DNA of 63,123 bases, the filler included, from Reclinomonas americana ATCC 50394 (taxonomy: Eukaryota): assembly GCA_048213135.1 (NCBI GenBank). It is 11 parts of 11 records of this genome, joined end to end, with 100 filler letters (N's around TTAATTAATTAA, not from the genome) between each part and the next. Parts side by side here need not be neighbours in the genome. Positions count along the whole stretch, not along the records: positions 1 to 4,453 come from AFZH01018905.1; 10 more parts are not named here. One strand, given 5' to 3'. Under the pieces are notes generated by a model that saw nothing but the letters and a program-made list of their open reading frames with translations, had not been told where the DNA came from and did no database searches. The position numbers and the translations under genes are program-made. Shown here one piece after another: positions 1,246 to 51,993 of the stretch. The first letter of the stretch is position 1. The number at the start of each line of letters is the position of its first letter.

Positions 1246-1367
1246 TTCCGCACCACCACCACCATCACCACCGTCACCAGCACCACCAACACCAAGTTCC
1301 ACTTGTTCCTTCTCCTCTCTTGACCTTTCTTGTATTCCTCTTTTTTCTTCTTCTTCTTTCTCTCTTT

Positions 1368-1699
1368 GTACGACGACGCGGACTTGCCTGCCGTGCCCTG
1401 CACCGCTAACCGCGCGCTGTGGAGAGCCCTCCCCGATAACTGCAGCGTGCGGAAAGTCGCAGGTTGCACGGTCGCTCTCCCCCTCGCCCCCCTGTTTTGC
1501 TCAAGAGTTACGTTGGCGCACCGTGTCTCGGTTTCACTGCATGCACAGGTTCCACCATCTTGGTGTCGGAGGGTGGGGGACGAGCGAGGGGAGAGTGACC
1601 GGCAACCGCGGCTTGGTACGAATCGGGGGGTGGAGCAAATCTCCACGCGCGCAACTCGCGTGTGCCAGGGCATGTGAGCGCGGCACTCCCTCGTCGTAC
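1368..1699 (+). ncRNA. Putative structured RNA: long imperfect rod/hairpin of unknown family
   Basis: Nested complementary blocks: 1368-1376/1691-1699, 1393-1400/1666-1673, 1411-1425/1640-1651, 1429-1437/1622-1630, 1454-1467/1602-1614 and 1469-1487/1584-1601. Non-Watson-Crick pairs in the stems are G.U on the + strand. Confidence 0.6.
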
Positions 1700-1940
1700 C
1701 TTTGTGAGAGTTGGGGGAGAGATGGGATAGGAGACGAAACAACAACAACAACAACAACAACATTTCCAGCATGGTGGGGCTTGGCGAGTGAATCAATCGC
1801 ACACAACGCAGACAACGTGGTGGGTTTTGTTCATGTTCCCATTTTGTGACGTCTCTTCGTCCCTCTGCGTCTCTTCGCGTGAGCGCGACTGCATCAGTCG
1901 CCGACGCAGCAGGCAAGCGGCTGCTGGCACCCCCACTCAC

Positions 1941-4453: not shown

Positions 4454-4553
4454 NNNNNNNNNNNNNNNNNNNNNNNNNNNNNNNNNNNNNNNNNNNNTTA
4501 ATTAATTAANNNNNNNNNNNNNNNNNNNNNNNNNNNNNNNNNNNNNNNNNNNN
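4454..4553. other. Artificial assembly gap linker (N-run, TTAATTAATTAA, N-run). The same linker occurs at 14362-14461, 16381-16480, 31650-31749, 38431-38530, 41782-41881, 44105-44204, 45877-45976, 50226-50325 and 52357-52456
   Basis: The same 100-nt construct, with stop codons in all six frames, occurs ten times. Confidence 0.98.
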
Positions 4554-4944: not shown

Positions 4945-7526
4945 ATGGACTTGTTCGCGACGCTTGCACGTGGCGCGCGATTCAACAAGCATCGTGCGAC
5001 TGCCGCAGCCAGCAGCACCACCACTACCACTACCACTACTACCACAACAACGACGACTGCGGCAAAGTCGAGTGCCGGCGGAGGAAAGCGAGGCACGGTG
5101 TGTGTGTGTCTTTGTCGCAAGTGCACATTCACATGCACAGAAGCGCACACAGCACGCGCACACGAGACTGACGCGAAAAGAGCTGCAGGCGAATCCGTTT
5201 GCGTTGTCGGCGGAGGTGGAGCGGGAGCTGGACTTTTTTGGGACGTTGCCGACGAGTCGGGAGCGGAAAGAGAAGGAGGTGGAAGATGAGGAGTCGAGTG
5301 ATGATGACAGTGAGGAAGAGGAGGAGGAGGAGGAGCAGCCTGCGCGCAAGAAGAGGCGGTTGAGTGATGCGCTGTCGCTGGAGCATGTTGCGTTGTGTGA
5401 TGCGTCGACCTCGGCAGGAGCACAGGGTATTGATGTTTGTGCAGGTCAAAGGTCTGCAACGACGTGCTCGTGTCAAGGTGCAAGGCGACGACGTGCCGTT
5501 GTCGATTTCGTCGTTTGATGAGCTGGCAAAGTGCGTACACATGCGGGCGGTGTGCGTTTCTGGTTGGCTGGTCGCGTGCTCATTGGTGAAGACAGACTCG
5601 GCTTCAAGGACTACCTGCTGCGCAATGTTCGTGAGGGGGGTTTCACCGAGCCGACACCCATTCAGATGCAAGCGATTCCGTTGATCTTTGCGGGGCGCGA
5701 GCTGCTGGCCTGCGCACCCACGGGAAGCGGCAAAACGTTGGCGTTTTTGTTGCCGATTCTGGCCAGTTTGAAGGCATGCACGCTTGCGATCTGTCCTCAT
5801 TTTTCATCTCAAGTCACTCACCATGTGTGGCAATGCAGGCGCCGGCCGAGGAAGGCTTCCGCGCGCTCATCTTGTCGCCGTCGCGTGAGCTGGCAGAGCA
5901 GACGTACCGCGAGTGTGTGCACTTTGCACGCGGTCGCAAGTGGCGCATCTGCCTGTTGACCCACAAGAGCACGTCGAGTGCGACCTTGTCGTCGAAGAAG
6001 CAAGGTTTGCGTGTGTTATCTCTTCACCCTCTGCAATAACATCCACGGCACTCACAAAGAGGGTGCGCGATGCAGACATTCTAATCTCCACGCCGCTCAA
6101 GTTGGCGCATTTCTTGCGTCTCGGTGTGATCAAGCTGCAAAAGTTTCGCACGTCGGCTGCATTCCGTGCCCTTTGCACCCACTTACTCACTGTGACGCAC
6201 CACAGTGTGAAGCGTGTGGTGCTCGACGAGTCCGACAAGCTGTTCGAGCTGGGCTTTTTGGAGCAGGTCGACGAGATTATTCATGCCTGCTCGAATACGG
6301 GCATTCAGCGCAGTCTCTTTTCGGCGACGCTGCCGACTGGTGTGGAGGAGATGGCGCGTTCGTTCCTTGTGGATCCCGTGCGCGTCATTGTGGGCTACAA
6401 GTTACGACTCCACACAAACACGAGCAGGTGCTTGTCGCTGTTGCGTCGCTGCTGACGTGCGTGCATGTGCAGGAACACGGCCAATGAGTCCATCAAGCAG
6501 CGTCTCGTGTACGTCGGTCGGGAGGATGGCAAATTGCTGGCCATGCGACAGTTGATTGCGCAGGGAGTGCGGCCGCCTGTGATTGTGTTTGTGCAAAGCG
6601 TGGACCGCGCGAAGCAGCTGTATCAAGAGCTGGCGTACGAGGGTCTGAGCACGGATGTGATTCATGCGGAGCGCTCACAGCGGGAGCGCGACGAGGCTGT
6701 GGCGAATTTCCGTCGAGGGAAGACGTGGTTCTTGGTGGCCACCGATCTCTTGTCGCGAGGTGTGTGTGCGCAGTGGTGGGAGGTGGTGACGCGTCGTCGT
6801 CGTCTCACTCCGCCGTGCAGGACTGGATTTCAAGGGAGTGCAGCTGGTGATCAATTATGATTTCCCACAGTCGGCCACCAGCTACATTCATCGCATTGGT
6901 GAGGAAGATGGTGGAGATTGTGGAGAGTGCCAAGAGATTGATGATCTGACTGCTGCTTGATGCGCGCAGGTCGAACGGGTCGTGCCGGCCGCCCGGGCGA
7001 GGCTGTGACGTTCTTCACCGATGAGGATGCGGAGGTGCTGCGGTCCATTGTTAATGTGGTGCAATCGAGTGGCTGCGAGGTGCCCGACTGGATGTTGCAG
7101 CTGCGGAAACCCAAGTTACGCACGCGTGGCGCGACCTGTGAGCCATCACCCCGCACCGTCTCACTTCCTTCGCCAAAATTGTTACAGTGGCATGGTCAAG
7201 AAGCAGCGCAGTATGTTCCCGGTGAAGCGCGACAATATCTCTGCCGTCTCCGACTGGGATCTGAAGCGTGCCGAGAGGAAGCGGTGAGCGCATTGAATGC
7301 AGTGACTTTGCAATCGTGCCGACACGCTCACTCTCCGTGATGCAGGCACTTTATCAACGAAAGCACTGGCCGCAGTGGAGGTGGCGAAAAGGACCGATCG
7401 AGAAGCAGGTCGTATTCTAGCGGCATGGGCGACAGAGCTACCAGAGGTGGTGGCGGCGGTAAGCGCGGACCGCGGAAGACAGAAGTGGCCGGCACGAAAC
7501 GCCCGAGACCCACAGCAAGAGAATGA
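4945..7526 (+). CDS. DDX52: DEAD-box RNA helicase DDX52/Rok1
   Basis: Motifs: N-terminal [14 protein letters not shown] motif [48 protein letters not shown] and C-terminal [10 protein letters not shown]. About 12 introns; TGA at 7524-7526. Confidence 0.95.
5774..5838 (+). other. GC-AG intron in DDX52
   Basis: AAG|GCATGC...CTCAC...TGCAG joins LASLK to [14 protein letters not shown] in frame. Confidence 0.8.
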
Positions 7527-14361: not shown

Positions 14362-14583
14362 NNNNNNNNNNNNNNNNNNNNNNNNNNNNNNNNNNNNNNN
14401 NNNNNTTAATTAATTAANNNNNNNNNNNNNNNNNNNNNNNNNNNNNNNNNNNNNNNNNNNNAGTCACGCAGCAGCTGAAGTGGTGTACGAGGCTTGCCCT
14501 ATGCGGGCCTTGAGTGCTCGTCGCCACTGTCGAAGTTGAACGGATTTGAGCCTCTGTCCGTGCCTGACAACTTGACTGCTGCA

Positions 14584-17266
14584 ATGCCGAGAGTGTACCG
14601 AGTGCGCTGGTGCATTCAACGCGCTGTGGCCTTTGGTCAAGAGGTGGGCACATGCACTCCTCCACATTCACTGTGATTCTCTCTCTCTCTCTCTCTCTCT
14701 CACTCTCTCTCTCTCTGACATGATGCTTGCAAAGGTGCGACTGTGTGGCGAGTTGGGCAGTGTTCGCACACACACCTCGCATCCTCTCTCGTGGAATCCA
14801 CACGAAAGCGCAGTGCAGTTGCACTGGAGTGCGGGTGACTGGTGGACCTCTGAGTTGAGTGAAGAGTGAGAAAGAGAGAGAGACGAGAGATTGAGAGATA
14901 TTGAGAGAGAATGAGGGACAGATAGAGAGAGAACAGAGAGCCTGAGAGCCTGTGTGTGAGAGAGAGAAGAGAAAGACAACTCACTCCCTCTGTGTGGACA
15001 ACAAACAGCGAGGTGCAGCTCACTGTGGATGATCACGCGGAGGAGTTCGTCGACACTGCTGCGCTGCCACTGGTGGTGTACAAGTACTGTGTGATGGGGG
15101 CGCAACAAGAGCATGACGGAGGCGATGGATGCGTCTGGGAGGGTGCCTATGGTCTCGATCGGGAACTGTTAGCACATGAATCGCTGTGGGTTGCCACGCC
15201 CGTCTTGTCTCCTTGTGCGTTCTTCTTCTTCTTCGTCATGTTGTTGGTTGGTGCGCGCACTCATTGTCTTGGCCAGTTGTCATTCGCGATCATTGGGTGG
15301 AGTCTGGCGCGGAGAATGTTGCGCTGTAGTGTGAGCGTGTCTTTGACCTGTTTCTCCGAGCGACTCACCGCGTGCACAGTTTTGGCGATCGTCGGAGCTG
15401 CAAGTGTCGCTGGATGAGGTGCTGGCGACTGTGTCGATGATGTCGGAGGATGAACTGGGCGATGAGTCGTTGGTGTGTGATTGTGTGTGGTTTTTCCGAC
15501 CGTTCCAGCCCTCGCTGGTGTCGCTGAATCAGTCCACGTGCAGGTGGCGACGTATGTTCGTGTGCAGTGCTCACAAGTGGTGCGACACGCTCGTGGCGAC
15601 GATGAGTGGCCAGTGGTGGTGCTGCAAGGAACACTGGAGCCGCTTGGTGTGTGCATGTGCTGTGATGGGAGTCCGTTCCTGCACACCAAGCTCACTTGTG
15701 TCGGATTAGGTTGCTGGGGCAGCCGTTCACCACCCGGCATTCAACTGGCGCCACTGGGCGACGGCGGAGTGTGGCACTGCTGTGTCTCATTACCCACGGT
15801 TGCCGTGGACGACGGTTCTGCGCAGTTGCGTTGGTCATGGAGATGTGTTTCTTCATTCTCGCTGCTTACGTCTTCTTCCATCCAGATACAAGTACGCCGT
15901 GTGCACCGCAAGAGGTGCGCGCGCAGAGGTTGCGTGGAAGGATCTGACGTGGGAGGAGGGCGAGAATCGTACGTTGCAAGTACCGCAGGCTCTCGTGCGC
16001 GTCGAAATTCCCGACGATGGCAGGTTCGTGGAAGCTCTTGTACTCACAGTGGTCGTGTTTGTTCTCTCATTCGTGTTGTTTCTGTCTTCGCGTGCAGTTC
16101 GCATGCTGGTGACGGCGCATTTGCGGCTCTGTCACGCGCTCATCAGCGATCCGCGGCGGTGCGACAGTTGCGACCGGTGGTGGTGATGGCCGACTTTCCA
16201 CTTCGTCATGTGCCGCGATACGAAATGCCATTCCGCGGCTTGCACAATCCCACAGGCTCCATTTGCTACGCCGCATGTGTGCTGCAGGTGCGAGCGTGTG
16301 ATGAGAGCCGCGAGTCATGCACGTTGTGTTCACCAATGTGTCGCACAGACCATGCTGCACACCGAGTACGTGCCAGTGCANNNNNNNNNNNNNNNNNNNN
16401 NNNNNNNNNNNNNNNNNNNNNNNNTTAATTAATTAANNNNNNNNNNNNNNNNNNNNNNNNNNNNNNNNNNNNNNNNNNNNCGAGGAGGGCCATTTGGTAC
16501 GCGCGCTGGCGCCTTACCTCAACGCGGCGATTGGTGTCGAATGTACCGACACCATGTGGGACGATGCGCGACCACCGGAAGAGCCTCACATGGTGAGTGT
16601 GCAGCGCTCAACGGTGCACTCTACCCTATTTGGGAATGCTGAATGCGCAAGTTTGAATAGGTCGGTGGCAGTCACGTGATGCTGCTGTGGGAGATGCCGC
16701 AGGTGTTGTGCTGTTTCGTGACTGGCTGGTACGAGAGCGCCAGTTTTATGGAGCACGTGACGGAGCACGCACTGCGGAAGGTGTGTTCGCACAGCGCGAA
16801 TGATGGCGTCTCACTGCCCTCTCTCACCCTCTGCAATGACGCAGAAACACTGTTCGCGCGGCCAGGGTTTCATTCGACCACCCATGTTGTACTTTCGCCG
16901 TGGCGGTGCCGAGCCGATGCATGCACGCTACGAGCTGCGAGCGTTACGTATTCTCCTTCAATGCGCGAGTTTTCCCTCCTCCTTACCTCCTCCTCCTCCT
17001 CCTCCTTGTGCGCAGCGTCATTATGCACACGGGATTCGAGCTGGACGGTCACAACTTTGTGTACGTCAGACCGCCGAGCCTGCGCACGTGGCTGGTGATG
17101 GACGACGAGCGAGTGCATCGCGTGTCGGAGGCGACCGCCGTGGGCGAGCACATTCCCGATCCCACTGCCGTTCCTCGTGCGTTGTCCTTCGCCTCTTTGT
17201 ACACCAAATTCGTTCACGGTACTCACTCTGTTGGGCGCAGATTATCTGGTGTACGTGCGGGTATAG
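14584..17266 (+). CDS. Ubiquitin-specific protease (peptidase C19) with two N-terminal CBM20 starch/glycogen-binding domains; spans gap 16381-16480
   Basis: CBM20-1: VRWCIQRAVAFGQE|VRLCGELG..WNP..AVQLHWSAGDWW..YKY..VWEG..DR. CBM20-2: VVLQGTLEPLG|CWG..GVW..|YKY..TWEEGENR. Cys box: GLHNPTGSICYAACVLQ. His box: YELR|SVIMHTGFELDGHNFVYVR..WLVMDDERV. C-terminus HYLVYVRV*, TAG at 17264-17266. Confidence 0.8.
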
Positions 17267-31649: not shown

Positions 31650-31749
31650 NNNNNNNNNNNNNNNNNNNNNNNNNNNNNNNNNNNNNNNNNNNNTTAATTA
31701 ATTAANNNNNNNNNNNNNNNNNNNNNNNNNNNNNNNNNNNNNNNNNNNN

Positions 31750-32944: not shown

Positions 32945-33390
32945 GGTTGTTGTTGTTGTTGTTGTACAGCGTTGAATGGGGTTTTACTACTTAGCTTTTT
33001 TTGTTTACTGTGTCCATCCGCGATCGTCTCTTCTTGTTGCGCTGCGAAGAGCAAATGAGGGAAGATGACAAGTTTTCTTTCTTGGTTGTTGATGGTGGAC
33101 AGCGTTGTTGAAGAGATCGTGAATGTTTTTTACTGCTCTTTCTTATTACTGTGTGTCCGTCCGCAATCGTCTCTTCTTGTTGCGCTGCGAAGAGTGGAGC
33201 AAATGAGAGATGACAAGTTTTTCTTTTTTGGTTGTTGATGGTGGACAGCGTTGTTGAAGAGGTCGTGAAGGTTTTTTTTACTGCTCTTTCTTATTACTGT
33301 GTGTCCGTCCGCAACCGTCTCTTCTTGTTGCGCTGCGAAGAGTGGAGCAAATGAGAGATGACATTTTCTTTTTTTGGTTGTTGATGGTGG
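32945..33390. repeat. Intergenic tandem repeat, about 3 copies of a 143-148 bp unit, each containing a CTCTTC...GAAGAG hairpin
   Basis: The block CGTCTCTTCTTGTTGCGCTGCGAAGAG starts at 33025, 33168 and 33316; copies 2 and 3 are nearly identical. Confidence 0.92.
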
Positions 33391-37000: not shown

Positions 37001-38430
37001 CTACGGCCCGTTCTGTTGCGTTGCTGCATTCACTACCAAAAAGTTGTTCTTTGTCCTCATATTGCACGTGCTATCCCATCACAGCTGGCACTGACGTGTG
37101 GACATCACCGACGCTCACACGCGCCATGTGTGGTCTCGCCCTCCGCAGCAGCAGCAATGATCTTGTGCTGTTTGGCGGTGATTCGACGCAAGAGTTCGCA
37201 GCCGACCCTCGGCTGTGGGCGTACAATACCGTCAGCCGTTTCGTCTCCCCTCACCCCTTCACGGCACGACAGGAGGCGTCCTCTCATGTTGTGTTGCTCC
37301 ACTTGCAGAGACGTGGCGAGTGCTGGCACCCACCGGATGCTCGTCCAGCGCCTCCACTCCCGGACCGCGTACCGGCCACACTCTGGTGATGAATCCGTCG
37401 CGCGACGAGTTGTTCCTCTTTGGCGGTCGCGGGACGACCACCGACTGCGTGCAGAACACACCCCCGTACCATTGCCCTGGGTCGACGAGCTTTGGCGTGC
37501 TGAACAGCGTGTGGCGCTTCAATTTTGGTTCGTGCTATTGCTGGTCTGTTGACGAGCAGCAGAGTCGCTGTTGCTCACATTACTTGCCGCAGGAACCAGC
37601 ACGTGGTCGACTACCACCTTCAGCACGTCTGTGTCGGCGCGGTACCGGCACTCAACCGTGGTGGTGGGCACGCTCATTTACATTTTCGGTGGACTCAGTT
37701 CGGGTGAGGCACCACTCAACGAGCTGTGGTCATTCAACGCATCGGGCGCCGGAACAGTCACCGCCACACGCCTGGCCAACGCGCCGTCGGCACGAGTCGA
37801 CGCCACTGTGTTTGCCTGCTCCTCCACCACCTCCATCTACGTGTTGGGCGGTGTCTCCAGCAGTGGCACTGTGCTGACGGATTTGCTAAAATACTCAATC
37901 GGTATGAAGCGGGAGGGGTAGTCTCCGTCTCTCTCTCACTCTCCCGCGCATACGCTCATTCCCGATACTGCAGGCTCCAACACGTGGTCCACTGTGACCT
38001 CGTCGACGCCGTACGCGCGCATCCAGGCGGCCGCGTTTGAGTATGCCAACCAAGTATGGATCTTTGGCGGCGTCAGCAAGACCACTAACCAAGTACTCGG
38101 CGAGCGACTCGTGTTTGATTGCGGTACGTCCCGCTGCGCACGTGTTGATGTCAGCAGCGTGCGCAGTCAACTGATCACTTGTTCCTCACGCGCAGCCACG
38201 GAGACATTCACACAGACGCAGGTGCCGACCAACAATGCCACATGTGAGTCGCACGGCCAGCGATTGAATCATGCTCCAGACTTGCTCACTGCGTATGCCT
38301 CTGAACAACACAGTCCCCTTCCACGCTCGCTTCGAGACTTGCAACGCCATGACCGCAGGTGGTACCCTGTATCGCATCGGCGGCAACAAGGTAGGCAGAC
38401 GACTGCTTTTCCCTCGCAATCTGTTTCTCT
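34014..38430 (+). CDS. Secreted or cell-surface protein: signal peptide, VWA domain, beta-sandwich region, kelch repeats; 3' truncated
   Basis: Signal MVSRRVTLVVVCLLLVMS. VWA: VDILVLFD|GSEN..NTAAYL..RPSASKFLIFVS..IFVATVGI. Kelch: PRTGHTLV..LFLFGG, RYRHSTVVVGTLIYIFGG, IYVLGG, VWIFGG. Confidence 0.8.
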
Positions 38431-38530
38431 NNNNNNNNNNNNNNNNNNNNNNNNNNNNNNNNNNNNNNNNNNNNTTAATTAATTAANNNNNNNNNNNNNN
38501 NNNNNNNNNNNNNNNNNNNNNNNNNNNNNN

Positions 38531-39303: not shown

Positions 39304-40548
39304 TCACTTGTCTTCTACCACTGCCACCTCCTCCCCATCCTCCTCCTTCTCCTGCGTCACATGCGCAAACGCCACCTCATCTGTCCAGCACAACTTGAAA
39401 TCGTTCTCCGGCTCCAGCTTGCGCACCCATACCTGCATGCCGACATGCAGCACCTCCAACTCGCCAGCGTACGTGGCCAAGAAGCCGTCAATGGCCGGCT
39501 TGGGGGTGTGGTGCGCTGGCCGCCGACCGTACATCCACAAGTAATCGTCCAGCGCCAGTACGCCTCCCACACGCAGCAAATGGAAGGCGTGCACGGCGTC
39601 CTCCAGCGTGCGGGTCGCCGTGTGGCACGCATCCACGTACACGAAATCGTACAACTCGGTGCGCGGCTTGTCGGCCGTCAGCAGACGCATCATGGCCGGG
39701 AGACTCTCCTCGTGTATGTACCGCACACGACCCTGCTCCATGTACGGCTTCAACGCCCGCTGGAAGCGCTCCACCGGCCCGTGATAATCAATGCAGTCGA
39801 TCGTGGCCTCCGGCAACGAGTTGCGCATCATAAAGAGCGCCGAGCGGCCCTCGTAGCTGCCGACCTCCAGCATGCGCAGCGTGGTGTTGAACGGCACAAA
39901 GCTGTAGAACATTTGCGGGAACATGGACGTCGTCATCCAATCGTCGCCGAGGAACAACTCGCTGTCGGGCGGGCTCGGCGGGAAGGTGCCCTCCGGCAGT
40001 GCGGCCACCAGTCTCTCGCGCTCTGCATACCGCGCGCGAGCCACCGAGTCGCGTACAGCCGACACCAGCGCTGCATGCACATTGCGCACTGTCGCACACT
40101 CGTCGATGGCACGATCCCGCATAAAGGCGATCACTGGGTGGGTGAAGGGAGTGAGAAAGGGAGTGTCCACAGTGTGTTCGTGTGTGTGTGTCAGTCTGCG
40201 TCCCTCGCTCTCTCTCTCACCTGCTTCATGCGTGTTGCTCTTGCCGACCACCGACAACACCTTTGCCTCCTCCTGATCGACACTCATGAGGACGCCAGTC
40301 ACATCCGTCATTGTGCGCGCCTCGTGCAGATCGACCGCGCGCAGAGACACATTGTGCTCGTCGGAGAGACAGGCGGCGAGGAAGAGCTCGCGTGGTGTTG
40401 GTTGAGGAGGCGGAGGAGGCGGAGGAGGTGGAGCAGAGTCTTTCTTGGCTTTCCGCTTGATCTCACGTGCGTCGGCGGTGCATGTCAGCAGAAGCGCGCA
40501 GGCAAGAAAGACAAGAGCGATGGTGAGGAGCGCGCGATGTGGCGACAT
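39304..40548 (-). CDS. Class I SAM-dependent methyltransferase (Methyltransf_24-like) with an N-terminal signal peptide/anchor
   Basis: Leader MSPHRALLTIALVFLACALLL; motifs MLEVGSYEGRSA, IDCID, YDFVYVDACH..LEDAVHAFHLLRVGGVLALDDYLW and TPKPAIDGFL. One intron. Confidence 0.88.
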   Translation of the reverse strand: MSPHRALLTIALVFLACALLLTCTADAREIKRKAKKDSAPPPPPPPPPQPTPRELFLAACLSDEHNVSLRAVDLHEARTMTDVTGVLMSVDQEEAKVLSVVGKSNTHEAGERESEGRRLTHTHEHTVDTPFLTPFTHPVIAFMRDRAIDECATVRNVHAALVSAVRDSVARARYAERERLVAALPEGTFPPSPPDSELFLGDDWMTTSMFPQMFYSFVPFNTTLRMLEVGSYEGRSALFMMRNSLPEATIDCIDYHGPVERFQRALKPYMEQGRVRYIHEESLPAMMRLLTADKPRTELYDFVYVDACHTATRTLEDAVHAFHLLRVGGVLALDDYLWMYGRRPAHHTPKPAIDGFLATYAGELEVLHVGMQVWVRKLEPENDFKLCWTDEVAFAHVTQEKEEDGEEVAVVEDK

Positions 40549-40975
40549 GAGATGAAATTGGACAGCGCGGTCCTGCACGCTGTCTGCTGTGATGTCGACG
40601 AGTGGGTCGACGAAGGGGAAGAGTGCTGGCTGCGGGCTGTGTTTGAGACGATCGCAAGTGCAGTTGGTCGACGTTTGCGATATCGATCGCATTCGACGAG
40701 CTGATATGCCAGCAATGCGCATCTTACACTCACTAGTATGATCGTGTGCGCGTTTTGTCACTTGTGTGCATCGCTCGTTGTTGCCTGCAGTTGTGAGTGC
40801 GCAACGTCGACGTCGATGACTGATATCTTCCCCGACGTCGATCGACGACGTGAACCGACAAGTGCGCAGCTTGTAGAACCACTCGCGAGTACACACGCTG
40901 TCTGTTGCTTGACTGTATACGTCTTTCTCCGTGTTTGCGTGAAGTTTTCGCACAGGACACTTGATCTCCAGCACC

Positions 40976-43900
40976 ATGAGCGGCGGTCTCGAGGTGAGCT
41001 TTCTCACACCCACACACAGCTCCCTCGCCTACACACGCGCCTCGTGCAACCACCATCTCCATCGCTCGTCTCTGCATGCACGGAGGGAGTGTTCTTCCGC
41101 GCGCCATGTCGTCATGCTCACAACAAACTGCACACGCGCTCTCTCTCTCTCTCTCTCTTCTCTCCGCATAGGACACTGCTGGGTGGTTGCACAAGCAAGG
41201 CGGTGCCATCAAGACATGGAAGCGACGATGGTTCTGGTTCGATGGAGCGCGCCTAAAGTATGGCAAGAAGCAGGGCGCCGCCGCCATCTCCTTCATACCG
41301 CGTCGCTCCGTCTCGCTCGTCGACTACGAAGACGAGGTGCCGAGTGGACCGAAAAAGTACCGCGAATTCGGCATCAAAGTGCGCCCTCTTGTTGTGTGTG
41401 TGTGTGTGTGTCCGCGTGACTCATCATCGTGTGGCAGGTGGTGACCTCGGAGCGCACGTACACGTTTCTTGCGGAGGACTCTGACTCGCGTGTGCTGTGG
41501 GTGGAGGCGATCATGGACTGGATTGATCGGCCGGCGGAGGATTTCCCCGATGAGGCGCTGGAGACGGCGTCGGCGGGTGGTAATGAGGACGAGGATGATG
41601 ATGATGATGGTGCGTTGTATGGTGTGTCGTCGTCATGGTGGTGGTGGTGGTGATGATGCTGACACGGTGTGTAGATCACAAGTCGATGAGCGGACGCAGT
41701 GAGGCTTCGGTGTTGTCGGCGTCGTCGACGGCGTCGACGGCGGCTGTGCCGAGCAAGCCGGCGGTGGCTGTGGCCTCACCGNNNNNNNNNNNNNNNNNNN
41801 NNNNNNNNNNNNNNNNNNNNNNNNNTTAATTAATTAANNNNNNNNNNNNNNNNNNNNNNNNNNNNNNNNNNNNNNNNNNNNGCTGCTGCTGCTGCTGCTG
41901 CAACTCCAGCTACGGAGACCACGGCCGCGGCCGAGGAAGCACAGCTACCAACGAGCGGATTGGTTGTGTCGGGCATTCGCGCCAGTCGAACAACAAGCAA
42001 TTCAGGTTCATCCTCTGGCAGTGGCGCCTCTGGTCCCGGCACACCGACTGGCGCCAAGAGGCCCTCAGCAAGTACCACCGCTGCAGCGCAGGCACTGTCG
42101 GGTACACGCACGGGCCTCGGTCCAGTGTCGAACAGCGGGTCCGCGTTGTTGCGAGGCTCCAGCACGGGAGGACGCAGTGGCAGCACTGCTGGTAGCGGTG
42201 GTTCCTCTGTGGCGGCTCTCGCTGCCGCCAGTCTCGCCAGCGTCCCGTCAATGTCGGCAAGCGCCACCGAGTACAGCAGTTCGCCCAAGTCCGGCGGCAA
42301 GATACCATCGCGTCTCTCCAGTCGTCCGGCCCCAGTTGCCGTGGCTGGTGATGATTCTTCGTCATCGCCTGTGCCGATTCCGGGAATTGGAAGTATCCGG
42401 CGGCCGTCAGCTTCCACCGAGTCCACAGGCTCTGCTGCATCTGCTGCGTCCGGTTCCGGCAGTAGCACTGCAGCTGGCGCTGCGTCTTCGCCCGACACAC
42501 CCACCGCTGCTGCTGCTGCTGCGGGTGGCACTACTTCTGCGAACGGAGCGTCGGGCTCAGCCGGTAGCGGAGAGGGCGAGAGTACGGCAACAGCAAAGCC
42601 GCCAGGTGTGTTGTCGATTCGTGCTGCCGAGAGCCTGCCCGTACTCATTCGCTCGTTAGCAGCCACTCCGCGACAGCCTGTGATGAGTCTGGGTATTGCT
42701 GGCATGTCGACCATGCGGGGTGTGTCTCCGCTGGTCAAGGACTTTGCCGACATCGCCTCACGCGAGAGCATTATGAATTTGTTGAAGACCGATGGTGAGT
42801 AGGCAATAATTGCGCGCACAGTCGGGGCCGCTGTGTCGTTGCGCTGACACAATTTCTGTGGAGTAGAAAACGGTGTGTTGGTCATGTCGGATATTGTGGA
42901 GAAGGAGAATAAGCGCGGCAAGCGGCAAGCACGCCTTCTCTGTGTGCTGGAGCGTGCATTAGTGTTGTTGACGCCACCCAGTGCCTCGAGTTCTGTACTC
43001 CACGTCCTTCCCATTGACAAGGTAATGTGTGTGTGTGCACGGCCTTGTGCACATTCTTGTTCTCCCTGACATCCGATTGTCAGCTCGCCGGCATTTTCCT
43101 GTCGGAGGAAGAATCGACGTGCCTTGCGTTCCGTGTGTACGGCGATCACGATTTTCTGTTGCTGTCACCGAATCGAGTGGACTTGGTGGAGCTGTTTGTG
43201 CAGCTGGCGCAGTCGCGCAGTGAACGACGTCTGCCGTGCACAGTTGCGTGGCGGAATGCTCTCTCTCTCTCTCTCTCCCTCTCCCTCTCCCTTCTGTATC
43301 TGAGTCTCACTGTCGTGCGCCGTTGTCTACCACAGCGTGTGTCCAATGTGCGCACCGTGCTTCACCGCGACAAGATCACTCCCGCGCTCCCCGACGACAT
43401 CAATGGTGAGGGTCGCGCGAATGACCGGCAGTGCTTGCATGGCAGGCGCATCTGATCACGACTGTTGGTTGTGTGCTGCAGAGCTGAGTCGCATGCAGCT
43501 GGTCGGTGCCGATCGCGATCTGGCTCAATTGGCACATCACCCCACAAGCATGGCCAGTCTGGCCGCAGGTGGTGAGTAGTTGCTGTCGCGCAGCACTATT
43601 TTTTGCTCATTGCTCATCATCTCATCTCTCCCACAAAGGCGAGACCAAAGTACTGTTCTCAGTGCTGCTCGCCAAGGTCAATCATCGCGACACCAAGCAA
43701 CAGCGGTACTTGTGCATCACTGACGCGACAGTGTACACATTTGACTTGGACTTTGCGTGTCTGCGTCGCATCGAAATCAAGGTTGGTGGAGACTTACACG
43801 CGTTCTTGCGTCACCCGGGATTCTCAACGCAACTTCATTCATGCGTGCAGGACATCTCGTCAGTGGTGGTGAGCACTGCAGATGAGGAGACATTTGCCCT

Positions 43901-46900
43901 CATGGTGCCGTCCGAGTACGATATTATGTTTGTGTCGCGTGAACGAGCGGAGATTATCGAGTTGCTCAGCCAAGTTCACCCGGCCAAGCGTCTCTCCGAC
44001 GGTCTCTTCATTCAGGTGATACAATTTGACTCTTGTGGTCAGCAGCAACCTGCCACAGAAGCACGTTGATAACATCTCCTTCTCTCTGTGTGTGTGTGTG
44101 TGTGNNNNNNNNNNNNNNNNNNNNNNNNNNNNNNNNNNNNNNNNNNNNTTAATTAATTAANNNNNNNNNNNNNNNNNNNNNNNNNNNNNNNNNNNNNNNN
44201 NNNNGTCGTCGATTGCCCATTCGGTCTCTGAGTGGTGCGTCGCTCGCAGATGAACACCACGCGCCGCGTGCTGCAAAATAGCATCAAATCGGGAGATGCA
44301 CGTGCTCTTCGTATGGCGATTCAGAATGCGCGATCCTTGGGCATGGGTGCGTCGCGTCGTTCTCGTATGCTGCCTCTTGCACAGGCGACCCGAATGCTCA
44401 TGCAGTCGCTCTCTGCTTTTTTTGTCGCGCAGCCGAATCGGAGATCACAGAGGCGGAAAACGCTCTCAAGTCACTGCAAGGTGCCGAGGCCGTTCGTCGT
44501 GACCTGCGTCTTGCCGTGGTCAACAAGGATCTGGTCGCACTGGAGGTGTGTGTACATTCATGTCATTCATCAGAGAGGCTCGGTTTACTGATTGATGATC
44601 ACGCAGGCGGCGGCAACCAAGGCGGCGGCCTTCCCTGTTCTTCGCGACGAGATCACGAAAGCCCGTGAGGAACTGGCTCTGCGCGGCGAGTTGGAGACAC
44701 TGCGCACCAAGTTGGATCACGCGATCGAATCGCGCGACTATGATGAGATTCAGCGCGCGCTCAGCACTGCCAACGCGCACCCGATGGCTGTCGAGTTACA
44801 AGAAAAGTTGGAGAAGGGCGAAGTGGTGCTGCGTGAACTGCAAGAGGTGGAGCAGAGGCGACGCCATAGCGAGTCGCTGGAAGTGATGGAGGGACTGGAG
44901 CGTGCCATCCAGGTGAGTGCATGAAGGCACGTGTCGGTGTCCTCCCTCTGGTTGAGTAATTTTTCTTTGTTGATCGCAGTCGGGTCAAGCCGATCAGATC
45001 CGCGAGAAATTGACCCGCGCCAAGGCTTTCTGCGAGGCCACTGGCACTGGTACCACCAACGTTTTGCACTTTGGTCTGGTTGGCCTGGGTGACAAGCAGC
45101 TGGAGCAGTCGTTGTTGTCGACTGTGGCGCAGGCTGAAAAGGTTTGTATTTATTTGTTCCCCTCACTTCATCGTGTTCGTCTGCTCACTTGCTTGCGACA
45201 GTCTGCACAAGAGCACATTCAGCGTGACGAGGCGTTTGCGAGTCTTCGTCAGGCCCTGGAGGCGCGCGACCGTGTGCGCTTGACTGAGACGCTGCAGACG
45301 ATCCGTGACCGCCGGTGGGACATGTACGAGCAGCATCTCATCCGCTCCGCCGAGCGACGCCGCGAGGAGCTGGAGGTACAGTGCTCTCTGAACTTATGTG
45401 GTGCACTGCATTCTGTCACTCACATCACTTGTACACATGTGTGTGTGCGCGCACACAGCGCGAGGAGGTTATTCGGGCACGAATGTCGCAGCTGATTGGG
45501 GAGCTTCGCACACTGCACACAAATCTTGCGGCGCCGCTCATGCCGCGTGCCGAGTTGCTTGGCGAGATTCGTGATGTGGCCCGCGTGGCAGCTCCGTTTT
45601 CCGCACTCGGCGACGCGATTGATGGTGAGAGATCCGCAGTGGCGATTGTGTGCCGTTGCCGACTTCTTGTTTATTCTTCTGACCTGTCGATGCGTCAGAT
45701 TCACACGCGCTGTGCGACGAAGTGGTGATGCGAATGGATCTGGAGCGCAGCCTGAGTGAAATGGTGGCACAGCCGGATGTTAATGCTGTTGCCATTGAGA
45801 CGCTGTTGGAGCAAGCGCAGGAGGCCAAGTGTGCGTGAAACATAGTTTCGCAATGATTGTCGCCGTTGGCACATGGNNNNNNNNNNNNNNNNNNNNNNNN
45901 NNNNNNNNNNNNNNNNNNNNTTAATTAATTAANNNNNNNNNNNNNNNNNNNNNNNNNNNNNNNNNNNNNNNNNNNNTCGGCGACTGCCACCGTTGCCTCT
46001 GGTGGCGAACAAGGGAAGGGTAGTGAGGCGTCGGCCAAGAAGGGCCTTCACAAGATGGGTCTGCGTCAGCGGGTTGCCTCGGACAAGGCAGAAGGTGCGT
46101 GTCGAGAGCTGTACTTTGCGGCTCCCTTCGCGTATTTTTTCTCATGCACATCGCAATGGATGCAGATGTAACTGCTCCTCCGCCTCCGCCATCCACCGCC
46201 GCATCACCTGTGGTCGTCACTGGAGAGACCACGACTGTCACCCCCGCTGCGCCACGCGGCACTGCTGCGGCCTCTGCCCCGCCACCTGCTGCTGCTGCAG
46301 CAAGCACCGTCACCAGCTCTGCCGGGGAGGATGCGGTGGTGGGCTCTGGCCCGACGGAAGACGACGACGAGGGCGAGAGTGGCGAGTTGCACTCTGTGTT
46401 TACGCCGCAAGATTTGGAGGACCTGCTGAAGACCGAGGACGGGTGAGGCGGCTATGAGCGTCTCTTTTGTCGCCAATTTCTCCGCTCTCACCATGTCCCT
46501 TGTGTGACAGTGATTCGCCACTGCGCCCCGGCGATCGAATTTCCTTGTCGGGCATCTTGCTGAGATACGGCAAGGACAAGACCTTTTCGCTGTGCGCGGA
46601 GAATTCTATTGGGGCTGGACCCCGTTCGCAACGGCTGCGAGACCGGATCGCCACACTGGAGAGGAAGATGGCAGAGGCCTCGGCGGAGGGCAATGCTGAC
46701 ACTGCGGCTCGCTGCCAGGAGGAATTGACCCGGCTGGATAACGAAATGCGGCGAGTGGTGCTGGCTGGCGGGGTTCGTGCGCTGTGCAGCGGTGGAACAA
46801 TCCACTCTCTTTGTTTGTATGTGTGTGTGCTCTGCTGCCGCTGACTGCCTCGTGGGGTTGATGCTTGCAGCTTACTGTTGGCTTCCGGTACTCGACCTGG

Positions 46901-49042
46901 GAGTTGGTGCAGGCGGCACCGACGGCCGAGAGCACCACGACGCACTTCGAGGCGGAGAAACAGGCCACACGACGAGCGCGTTCTCTTTCTGCCATTGTGA
47001 ATCCGGTACGATGTTCACGAACGTGTCGCTGTGTTGCCCTTCACCTGGTCTGACTGCGTTGCGTCACAGGCGCCCCCTCCGTCGGCGGTGGAGGCGGGTG
47101 CGCCGCCTATTGATGTGACAGTGCCGCCTGATCGCGACGCGGACACACCTCCGATTAGCAGTCCTGCCTCACATGACTCGCTGGAAGTACCGTTGCGTCA
47201 GCGCACACGCACACGCGCGCATGTCAATCGATCGATTGATGGTATACTTATCATGCATGCAGACCGTCGCCCATGAACCGCGTGGAGAATTCCACACCAC
47301 CACAGCGACTGTCGGTGACGCACATCAATGCTGGCGACCTGGTGGAGGAACTGGCCTCGAGTTTGCGTGATCTGAAGGCCGAGTGTGCGGAGCGCGAGCT
47401 GCACGGCGTCGTAGGTACGTTGTGCACCTGCTGTGCTCTCTCCGCAATGATATCGAGACTCACTTCACACTGCGACAGGCGTTCGAGATGCTCACGGCTA
47501 CTATGTGGTGGCCCCAACGGCGACTCTGGCGCTGCAGGCGGTGAAACTGATTCATGCAATTCTGACGGATCGTGTGCGGGTACGGAATCCTTGCTCGCCC
47601 TTTTTCCCAGTTCGTTTAGTTTTGCTGAATGACTGGAGTGCTGTGCAGGAAGCGTATGACGTTTCCGGTGATCCGCTCCGCATCCTCAGTCAAGTGCGAT
47701 CACCCGACGCCGACGCTGCCTTCCGCGACTTTTACTCCTTGTCCAGTTGCGCTGATCCATTCAGACATACACGTGCCAGCTATTGATAATCATGCCTCTC
47801 AATCCGTGTATTGCAGATGTGCGCAAGCTTACCGAGGCGCAGTTGAACCGCCTCGGGCTGCTGCTGTTTATTCAGTACTGCCTGAACCAGCGCTTCTTGT
47901 CGACCATGTTGCAAATCGCGTTGACAACACCTGGATTCGTCGAGACCACGTACCATCCAACAGCACTGATGGCGAATCCGGCCGGACTCGATGATTTGTT
48001 TGGCGTACTGGCACTGCTGTTGCAGGTGTGTGTTTGTGTGTGTGACACCGAGAAGATAGCCTCTCTTGCGCTGGGCCTCACTGACACGTTGCGTGTCTTT
48101 TGCATAGTTTTCTTTCTCGTTCAAGCTCGGAACGCGAGACGCCCCTACTCAGCCCAAGCCCGGTGCGTTGTTCTTTGCGCTTTATATTACGTGTGTCAAT
48201 ACGCCGTATTGACGGGTTGTTTTGTATCTTGCAGTTGCTGCTGCGGTTGGATTCGAGGCTCCGTTGGTGGCTGTGGTCAAGGCGATTGCCAGACACTTTG
48301 TGCAAACTGGTCAAGCTCGCGATTTGGTGCGTCCTGTTGTTGTCGTTGATGATGATGTGTGGAGTGCTAATCGATACGTGTGCCGCCAGAAACTGCTTGG
48401 CGATGATTCCATCACGCCGGCCATCACTGTCTTGGTGCGCGGTGACTTGTGCACTGCGGTGGCCACGGTGCTGTCAATAGGGTTCAAGGCGAAGCGTCTG
48501 TTTGGTTCGAATCATCTGTGGGACATGTTTGTGCGGGCATCCAAGAACGCAAGAGGCCTTGGTGTCACTCTTGCCACGGCGGTCTCCAGCATTGACGATC
48601 TGGTCGAGAGAAGTCTGCGCTCCGGCGACAAGGACGTCAAGTTCCGCACACTCGTTTGTCACGCACTCAAGTTTCGCAGTCGCCGCTTCCGCACACTCCC
48701 GATGACACGCCTGTTTATCACTCACGCACCACCACCCTCTGCGTTTGCAGCACTCATGTGTTGTGTGAATTCCTGAGCGCGGTGTTGTCGGACAGCGACA
48801 TTTTGGAAAGATACTACGAAGAGTCGTCACCGTTCTGGCAAGCAGGTGCAATTGACGCGCTGCAGCGGGCGTGTGGCAAACTTGGTGAGCTTCTGTGGTC
48901 GCGGTGGTGGTCGTGAAGACAACCGGCAGTGACTGACATGACCTTGTGCACAGACAAATTGCCGTTCCGCCTGGCGTTGGACCGCGAGTTGGACTCGGAA
49001 GACGCTGGTGCAATGAGCGGCGACGATAGTGATGAATGGTAA
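40976..49042 (+). CDS. PH - Ser-rich - two myosin-I TH1-like - helical/UVR-like - RUN-domain protein; contiguity across three gaps is inferred
   Basis: PH: GWLHKQGGAIKTWKRRWF..RTYTFLAE..WVEAI. TH1: LVMSDIVEKENKRGKRQARLL and VLFSVLLAKVNHRDTKQQRYLCITDATVY..SEYDIMF..RAEII. RUN: LCTAVATVLSIGFK..HLWDMF..KFRTLVCHALN..ILERYYEESS. TAA at 49040-49042. Confidence 0.65.
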
Positions 49043-49178: not shown

Positions 49179-51993
49179 TTATCGGACGTTGAGCACACGC
49201 TCGGCGATTGCTGGCTCGTGCTCCCTCGACATGTTTGGCCGAACATCGTGCACTCCACGCTTGCTGTCGCGCAAGAGATGCTTGCCAAAGGTGGGTGAGC
49301 CAGGCGGTTGCGGCTCCACCAACTTGAACGACGGCGAGTACATCACGTCCTATAGGCGAGCACACACACACACACATACGGAGTGAGTCGTACTGCGCAA
49401 ACCGAATGGTGTGTGCATCAAGCTGCTCACCGTGACGTAGTGTGGCTGCGTGAGTGAGCGCTCGGCGGTGAGGGATAGCACGGCCGTTCGCTGGTGTGCG
49501 TCGGTCAAGTCGTACTTTCGGTCGTAGAACTGAAGAGGAGGAGAAGGAAGGATTCAGTGACTTGTATGGCAGCCTTGGTCGACACAACGCGGCATACCTT
49601 GTCGAGGAGAGGCTTGTGTAGACGACGCTCCAACTGGCTTGGCACATCTCGCATCGTGCCGGCATGCAAGTCAGGCACCGGCATGCGCGGCCGCACCGGC
49701 GACACGTCCGGATCGTAGTCCAAGTGCAGGCCTGGTGGTTCGCGTGGACGATCGGCGTTGTGTGGCCGCATTGTCTGCATGTTGGGTCCCAAGACACGCG
49801 GCTGCACGAGATCCCATGTCGGGTCGTACTCCTGCGCGCGCCAGTGAGAATCACGTACACGCCGACCGCAGACAACTGCCACCACCGCTCACACTCACCA
49901 AACCAAGATTGATGTGCTGCAACTCCTTGCCCGTCTCCGTTCGTCTCAGCTGCCGGCTAAAGTCGGTTTGTGGTGGACGCTCATGCACATGCACGTCTTT
50001 GAAACAAAGGAGACAGTCAGCCAGCAGAATGGACGACAAAAAAACAATCCACATCTTCGCACCTGCGTCCTCCGGGTGGTAGCGAATGCGAGGCTCCATC
50101 ATCTGTGGCTCGCTCTCCTTGGTGATGACGCGTCGGTCGCGTCCGCCAGTGCGTGTCATGTCGGGCGACAGCGATCGGCGGAAGGTGAATGGTTCCGGAT
50201 TGGACTGCACCGAATATCGAGTCAGNNNNNNNNNNNNNNNNNNNNNNNNNNNNNNNNNNNNNNNNNNNNTTAATTAATTAANNNNNNNNNNNNNNNNNNN
50301 NNNNNNNNNNNNNNNNNNNNNNNNNGCTGCGCGTGCGTGCCGTACTTGGGCTCTGCGACCGCGCACGACTCCTGTGCGAACGACCGTCCTCGGTGCCGTC
50401 GCCACCGTGCCGACCACTGCGGGTAACCGAGGCCGATGCAGGTCGCGAGGGACGTGCATCCTCTGCCGCCTGTGCGCGCGCCTTCGTGTCAGTGACGTGC
50501 GCGTGGGTGCGGCTGTCGGACAGCAGAAAAAAGAGAGCTTACGAAACGTTAGTGCCATCACCCTCGCCGTAGGTGAGCTCGCGAGGAGGTGCCGTCTCGT
50601 CGCCATCGTCTTGCTTCAGTTGCGTCCTGTAGAACACGGGGCTCTGCGGCCGGCCAGCCATCTCCCGATCGCGCTTCGCCACCGGCGAGAACTCGCTGGC
50701 CAGTGACGGCGGTGCTCCACGGCAGTGGTGCGGATACACGGGCTCCTTCATGGCCGGTGTGAGCACAGTCGGCTCGGCGATGGTGAAGCGCGGGTTGTAT
50801 GTGCCCTGCGGGCATCAAGAGAGAAACCCAACAGAATCGAGTCAGTTTCACGTGGAGGGAGAACACTGTTCGCATGGGGTAAAAACGCACCACTGCTGGT
50901 GATTCGCGCGACCTCCGCACGTGCTTGTTGGAGGTCTCACGCCACCGTTCCGGTGAGAGGAAGCTGGCACTGCCGGCGGTGCTCTCCGCCGTCGTCACAT
51001 CGCCAACTCGCGGGTCGACCTTGAAATGTGGCCGGTACACCTGGCGATTGTCGACATCGTCGTCGCTCTCGCCATCGGCATCGGTCTCACCGGCACCAGC
51101 AGCCCCGCTGGAAGAAGAGGACTTCCTCTTGCTGGGATCGGGTGAGGCGCCGCGCTGCAGCACGGCGTTCTTCTTCATGGCCGACAGTTTCTTGTTCTTG
51201 GCGGCGGTCTGCTTCTCGCGATACTTGGCCGCCCGTTCGTCCATGCTGCGCTTCACGGCCGCGATAGGCGACAGCGGCTGGTCGCGCGCCTTGGACTCGC
51301 GCAGTTCCATCAGGCGCCTCTGCACCAGCTCCTCTTCGGTGGCCTCGCGGTGAATATCGGCGGCACCCCGGCTGCGCACACCAAATAATCGTCAGTTTCC
51401 CGTGTTCATCTCACCCAGGTGTGCGTGTGTGCGCGCGTGTGTATGCACTCACCGAGCACTGGAGCACACAGATTTGTCGCGCTTGACATGGTTGGGCTGG
51501 TCGCCAGCACTGATGATAGTGTCGGAGAGATCGAGGTCGAGCGACGAGCTCGACGTGTCAATGCTCAAGTCCAGCGATGCCGTCGACGAGTTCGGCGACG
51601 AAGCCGCCGGAATCTTGACGTGCTTGGCCCCTGCGGCTACACACAGCAAACCGGGGAGTCAGACGCGTGGTCATCGATGTGCTCACAGCGGCGGCGGCGG
51701 CGTGGGACTCACCAATAGAAGCCTTCAGCAGGCTCTTGACATTGAACGACGAGTCGGCAACTGCGCACAAGAGAGGAGAAGCATGATGAGCACAACCAAT
51801 TTCTGCGTCGAAGGAGGATTTTGGAGGCGGTGGCGGGAGTCGACTTACTTCGTCCGGCTCTGCGGGAGTTGACCAAAAAAGAAGAAGAGTGAGCGCGCTG
51901 CTGCAGAACAACCAGACAACAGACACGCACGCAAGCAGACACACAGACGACAAACCGTGAGAACGACGGTGGAGTGGAGTGACTCGCAGCCAT
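49179..51993 (-). CDS. Hypothetical disordered protein with recurring Y-x-P-x4-5-(V/A)-x-P motifs; spans gap 50226-50325
   Basis: Spliced motifs VYRPHFKVDPRV, TYNPRFTIAEPTV, EYDPTWDLVQPRV, DYDPDVSPVRPRM and MYSPSFKLVEPQP. Stop at 49179-49181; start uncertain. Confidence 0.55.

Follow-up and report, generated by a model that had tools for sequence, protein, structure and literature searches.

A degenerate inverted repeat between convergent LENG8-like and CENP-S genes of Reclinomonas americana forms a strong single hairpin

The window (the whole stretch of DNA that was analysed, 63,123 nt) is made up of 11 contigs of about 1.7–15 kb joined by ten linkers of the form N44-TTAATTAATTAA-N44 (4454–4553, 14362–14461, 16381–16480, 31650–31749, 38431–38530, 41782–41881, 44105–44204, 45877–45976, 50226–50325 and 52357–52456); since the linkers join separate contigs, features spanning a linker are not true neighbours. 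A hairpin element of 330 bases lies on the first contig (1–4453), in the 695-nt stop-to-stop spacer between a SAC3/GANP-family gene (LENG8/Thp3-like) and a CENP-S gene that converge on it. The last exon of the SAC3/GANP gene was placed at 1074–1245 on the + strand (TGA at 1243–1245; exon borders by eye). An earlier exon of the same gene (78–323) matches PF03399 with an E-value of 0.004, which is below the curated cut-off; its closest homologues, eight proteins, are 47–65% identical to it, and PF03399 is present in 8/8 of the homologues found. The intron of this gene at 324–385 begins with GTTGCG, and the exon preceding it ends in C. On the other side, the CENP-S gene is marked by a PF15630 match (E 1.6e-8) on 2027–2398 of the − strand and is probably completed by a last exon at 1941–2015 on the same strand, with its stop at 1943–1941, after a 65-nt intron (2080–2016) that joins in frame and was inferred by eye; read unspliced, the frame ends at a stop at 2026–2024. 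The core of the element, 1368–1699, starts 122 nt past the LENG8-like stop and ends 241 nt short of the CENP-S stop. The probable CENP-S stop TGA lies directly 5′ of a splice-donor-like GTGAGT (1935–1943, − strand), which could belong to a 3′-UTR intron or to an alternative C-terminus. A candidate 3′-UTR intron (GTACGA...AG) was also judged by eye and rejected, as its start is unlike the donors of the neighbouring introns and nothing downstream requires joining. Pfam matches on other contigs of the window comprised DEAD/Helicase_C exons (5522–6857, +), Kelch repeats (37182–37918, +), a myosin TH1 tail (43488–44066, +) and a RUN domain (47756–48346, +); a Methyltransf_24 domain lay in an open frame of 574 aa at 39307–41028 (−), on another contig.

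The sequence 1368–1699 is a degenerate inverted repeat. Folded as + strand RNA, it gives a single unbranched rod of 129 pairs (86 G-C, 30 A-U, 13 G.U) at −184.8 kcal/mol, against a mean of −142.5 kcal/mol (sd 5.5) for dinucleotide-shuffled sequence (z −7.65; 0/100 shuffles as good); the − strand folds at −170.3 kcal/mol (z −7.82; again 0/100), and the core as single-stranded DNA reaches z −5.83. The z-score called for in the first-pass annotation is thus significant on both strands. The + strand MFE lies 14.5 kcal/mol below that of the − strand, and the + strand fold is well defined, with a mean MFE-pair probability of 0.87 and 65% of its pairs above 0.9. The MFEI of the core is 0.86, within the range reported for plant miRNA precursors. 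When the + structure was mirrored onto the − strand, the energy obtained lay below the − strand's own MFE, an artefact of scoring non-standard pairs, and this value was discarded. The left arm (1368–1491, +) pairs with the right arm (1575–1699, +) in the MFE folds of both strands and in the arm-to-arm alignment. The apex or spacer between them (1492–1574, +) is a G.U-rich rod on the + strand only, ending in a UUC terminal loop (1533–1535) in the + strand MFE, and falls into small separate hairpins on the − strand. All four of the helices singled out beforehand were found where they had been placed: GTACGACGA/TCGTCGTAC forms the 9-nt terminal helix 1368–1376/1691–1699, which is 100% paired, GGTCGCTCTCCCC/GGGGAGAGTGACC lies inside a 14-nt, 93% paired helix (1469–1482/1588–1601), GTGCCCTG/CAGGGCAT lies within the helix 1392–1400/1666–1674, which has one G.U, and of CTCCCCGAT/ATCGGGGGG the MFE uses the CCCC/GGGG at 1431–1434/1627–1630 while the centroid uses more. 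The finer details fared less well. A side hairpin at 1440–1452 appears in the DNA fold only and is absent from the RNA MFE, and the branched apex is likewise not a feature of the + strand, where the rod is unbranched, but is confined to the − strand and the DNA fold. Along the rod, 99 of 311 21-nt windows were duplex-like (no more than five unpaired and three asymmetric positions); the best 21-nt duplex, and the most Dicer-like stretch, is 1462–1482 with 1588–1607 (+), in which no more than one base is unpaired on either side.

For comparison of the hairpin with the rest of the window, all 63 kb were scanned with RNALfold on both strands at a span of 420. On the + strand the fold at 1344–1723 led the ranking by energy per base (−0.534 kcal/mol/nt, followed by −0.478) and was the sole top fold whose pairs all (100%) shared one axis. 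Its − strand counterpart came seventh, with 90% of the pairs on a common axis. No other strictly single-hairpin local fold in the window comes near the core hairpin in size. Under the same shuffle control, the three next-best candidate hairpins gave z-scores of +0.09, −2.67 and −2.41, and the scan yielded no comparable hairpin at any other gene pair of the window.

Pairing outside the core was of a different quality. An outer helix, 1292–1302/1774–1784, had been put forward as possible, and it does occur in the MFE fold of the 493-nt segment; when the core was kept and both flanks were shuffled, 5/100 shuffled-flank folds were as good (z −1.76), and for the inner flanks (1344–1367/1700–1723) 3/150 were as good (z −2.65). 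The outer helix and the flank pairing were therefore rejected as a specific structure and are regarded as compositional, a CT-rich tract having a GA-rich one opposite it. The former follows the SAC3/GANP stop (1295–1367, +; CT at least 84% in 50-nt windows across 1295–1377); the latter (1704–1763, +) is purine-rich, includes an (AAC)n microsatellite and is pyrimidine-rich on the CENP-S sense strand, so that for both genes the sense strand has a pyrimidine-rich end in the adjoining tract. The same pyrimidine-left/purine-right layout recurs elsewhere in the window, where (CT)n at 14655–14730 and (GA)n at 14857–14922 stand ~130 nt apart with a fold z-score of only −1.8. The (AAC)n microsatellite itself (1738–1762) adjoins the right side of the hairpin, and similar GTT/AAC runs are present at ~32946–32965.

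For analysis of the differences between the arms, the left half was aligned with the reverse-complemented right half under a strand-symmetric scoring scheme. Across 152 ungapped columns there were 125 matches and 27 mismatches, besides 47 gap columns. Such divergence bears on the reading of the element as a chance fold or as an artefact of assembly or amplification, for example an inverted chimera: the window consists of 11 short linker-joined contigs, which indicates a fragmented assembly, but the arms of a chimera would be identical, which led us to reject this origin, and no shuffle on either strand folded as well, so that we regard the whole reading as scarcely credible. The 27 mismatches divide into 13 that are G.U on the + strand, three that are A.C on the + strand and 11 of transversion type. 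The statement that the stem deviations are G.U wobbles is therefore incomplete: the transition-type differences stand at 13 to 3, and there are also the 11 transversion-type mismatches and the gap columns. The three A.C positions, which are G.U on the − strand, are adjacent (1409–1411) and lie inside an internal loop. A ratio of 13/16 differs from 0.5 (p 0.021, two-sided) and from the 0.55 expected from core composition (p 0.029, one-sided); in the main stem taken separately the count is six G.U to three A.C, which is not significant (p 0.37), and the apex (1492–1574), whose halves align poorly, one being T-rich and the other G-rich, holds the remaining 7 of the 13 G.U. From these wobbles the first-pass annotation had argued for selection on RNA structure; the overall excess (p 0.02–0.03) speaks for that argument, and the main-stem count and the equal strand z-scores speak against it. 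It is this G.U asymmetry that would carry the step from a strong fold to a selected RNA, and it is weak; given equal z-scores on the two strands, it amounts to no more than a hint that the + strand is selected as RNA.

A hairpin selected as + strand RNA, in the 3′ UTR of the LENG8-like gene or in a read-through transcript, is nevertheless the explanation to which this asymmetry would belong. It could take the form of an hpRNA- or miRNA-like precursor of Dicer type, or of an RNase III site that ends and destroys read-through, and we consider these variants together the main rival, a tentative possibility that deserves attention without being the favoured one. Besides the 13:3 ratio, the lower + strand MFE with its unbranched apex, the many duplex-like windows, the status of the element as the only rod in 63 kb and its start so close behind the LENG8-like stop are all in keeping with it. 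It is weakened by the core z-scores, which are alike on both strands, by a G.U excess that lacks significance in the main stem and can be ascribed to composition in the apex, and by the window, which contains neither a complementary target nor a similar hairpin at its other gene pairs.

Sequence comparisons placed the element in no described group. No Rfam family was matched at threshold; the only match with E ≤1 was MIR1023 (RF01043), which scored 22.7 bits (E 0.032) where the gathering score is 90, and the whole window contained 0 matches at gathering score, in agreement with the earlier failure to assign the element to a known RNA family. An independent gene for a new structured ncRNA with its own promoter and ends would account for this result and for the strong, well-defined structure; yet the element is a plain rod without conserved-looking internal loops or junctions, its fold quality is equal on both strands, and the T6 run at 1342–1347 lies upstream and not downstream of the hairpin, unlike the layout of a Pol III unit, so that we consider such a gene very improbable. 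None of the nine frames translated across the element had a Pfam match at E ≤0.01; two weak matches (E 0.054 and 0.082) were far below their cut-offs. A search with blastn (1292–1784, word size 9) returned only microsatellite matches within the window, with exact runs of at most 14 bases, and likewise no target or progenitor gene complementary to the arms was found within the 63 kb (microsatellites, at most 14 exact bases); a coding or target-gene origin of the arms was rejected, as there was neither a Pfam match nor a match in the window. A scan of metagenomes for SAC3/GANP recovered six loci (L001–L006; 1.6–3.5 kb, GC 24–46%), all from distant organisms, which were mostly too short to include the 3′ end of the gene and whose best rod-like folds were unremarkable. 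Among the 222 ORFs of at least 120 aa in the window, none contained an RNase III, PAZ or Piwi domain.

The ends of the element have transposon-like features. The perfect 9-bp termini (1368–1376/1691–1699) are terminal inverted repeats, the interior is without coding capacity, as in a MITE or foldback element, judged by the nine frames against Pfam, and a direct repeat CTTT, read from the sequence, stands directly outside the 9-base terminus on the left (1364–1367) and on the right (1700–1703). This pair is a possible 4-bp target-site duplication, only four bases long, for which we roughly estimate a chance occurrence of ~1/256 at fixed boundaries; excision of the element together with one CTTT would join the CT tract to the GA tract. 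Such a repeat beside perfect termini is compatible with a transposon or foldback reading. In its multi-copy form, a member of a MITE or foldback family inserted with a 4-bp target-site duplication, this reading accommodates the termini, the CTTT pair and the lack of coding capacity. The copies it calls for were searched for in several ways. Within the window, blastn at word size 9 and a search with the 14-base terminus (at most three mismatches) disclosed no second element, only the two own termini pairing up; the latter search gave 24 matches where 9.3 were expected, an excess that looks mostly like GACGAC-type repeats. The other scanned windows of the same assembly contained 0 look-alikes (~90% identity), exact-pattern scans of genome_contigs returned 0 matches for each of two patterns, one of 24 bases from the stem and one of 21 bases from the terminus, and an exact-pattern scan of viral_contigs with the 21-base terminus alone gave 0 matches. 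The dispersed copies that would have marked the element as a MITE are thus absent from the DNA searched, the 63-kb window and the other scanned windows. In addition, the divergence of the arms would place any activity long in the past, and the termini do not start with a CACTA-type motif. Membership of a multi-copy family is accordingly unlikely in our estimation.

Several characterized systems resemble the element in part. Long inverted repeats constitute the hpRNA endo-siRNA loci of Drosophila, one of which was born inside a 3′ UTR as PMC10317233 describes. The element here resembles them as a single-copy inverted repeat of a few hundred bases that forms one extended imperfect hairpin, its 129 pairs lying on one axis as in an hpRNA- or miRNA-like precursor, and hpRNAs are young in the account of PMC10317233. 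As defined there, hpRNAs differ in having Dcr-2-dependent siRNAs and arms that are usually derived from their targets, while the window here holds no target-like match. Long-hairpin miRNA precursors occur in Chlamydomonas, and also in other protists. According to PMC5511227, transcribed inverted repeats feed the small-RNA machinery, most young loci of this kind are probably neutral, and the long-hairpin loci of Chlamydomonas type are thought to stem from inverted duplications. The likeness to the Chlamydomonas precursors described in that source lies in a unicellular eukaryote, a fairly long hairpin and several possible duplexes; a member of that class must yield AGO-bound small RNAs among which one 5′ end predominates (PMC5511227), and here the only Rfam miRNA match, MIR1023, is far below threshold. 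Hairpins can also descend from transposons, hsa-mir-548 being derived from the Made1 MITE (PMC1784062). Like MITE-derived hairpins, the element is short and non-coding, consists almost entirely of a pair of inverted arms, and has perfect termini flanked by a short direct repeat; MITEs are multi-copy, and here no second copy was found in the DNA searched.

The known sites of Rnt1 are short stem-loops capped by an AGNN tetraloop. In the predicted fold the present element is unlike them, having a stem of ~120 bp and a UUC loop, and the loop in particular tells against an RNase III site of that type. The position would suit a stem-loop in a nascent transcript. A Rnt1 site in the NPL3 intergenic region of S. 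cerevisiae serves fail-safe termination (PMC2779338), and Pac1 of S. pombe cleaves stem-loops in nascent mRNAs (PMC8421224). As at the NPL3 site reported in PMC2779338, the hairpin stands 3′ of a gene for an mRNA-processing/export factor, where read-through would enter the neighbour; both RNase III examples, together with the 3′-UTR hpRNA of Drosophila (PMC10317233), are precedents for a selected + strand hairpin. A further proposal is a two-way RNase III-type processing or termination element acting between the LENG8-like and CENP-S genes. The fold is about equal from either strand, so that read-through from both genes would be cut; we rate this proposal as doubtful.

The reading that we prefer, and to which we give about an even chance, is a single-copy foldback that arose at the level of DNA. 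We infer that an inverted repeat of ~330 bp, with two arms of ~124 bp around an 83-bp spacer, would most likely have originated by local inverted duplication or by a foldback/MITE-like insertion and would since have decayed, being tolerated in the 3′ space that the two convergent genes share. Owing to its position, a transcript reading in from either side would fold into an imperfect double-stranded stem of ~120 bp, and such a stem, if transcribed, may be a substrate for RNase III- or Dicer-type enzymes. The fold exceeds chance by far on either strand, the two z-scores being equal, and does so as DNA too; this is exactly what a DNA-level palindrome predicts. We count the decayed look of the aligned arms, the main-stem ratio of 6:3, the perfect termini flanked by CTTT, the missing Rfam and Pfam matches and the compositional nature of the pairing outside the core in favour of a DNA-level origin. 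Against it we count the 13 G.U to three A.C with the A.C clustered in an internal loop, the + strand rod that is kept through the apex and is 14.5 kcal/mol lower, the well-defined structure (mean pair probability 0.87, MFEI 0.86) and the survival of a 330-bp passenger in a short spacer of a gene-dense genome; the lack of a second copy in the DNA searched counts, within this reading, against a multi-copy MITE origin. The earlier suggestion of a new ncRNA, a small-RNA precursor or a 3′-UTR regulatory element is compatible with the z-scores and with the Rfam and copy searches; what it lacks is weight on the side of selection, for which the evidence is the modest G.U excess. The evidence for a functional RNA is limited to that excess, and the equal fold quality of the two strands suits a DNA palindrome no less. 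In itself the hairpin is real and strong, unique in the window, placed between two convergent genes and outside described RNA families; at most, the single-copy foldback would be a 'proto-hairpin-RNA' locus, still young, its products being by-products, and a discrete selected structured RNA is not favoured. It is best filed as a long inverted-repeat/foldback locus that could be a young source of hairpin RNA.

The consequences differ with the reading. A neutral foldback would be an ordinary by-product of genome evolution, and it would caution that a very strong, strand-equal fold z-score alone does not indicate a functional RNA. A true two-way element would insulate the convergent genes, would couple the amount of an mRNA-export factor to the processing of double-stranded RNA in the nucleus and would correspond, in a eukaryote, to the two-way hairpin terminators that lie between convergent bacterial genes. 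If the hairpin is processed, Reclinomonas americana, a deeply divergent protist, would have a small-RNA or RNase III substrate locus at convergent genes, where control of read-through matters.
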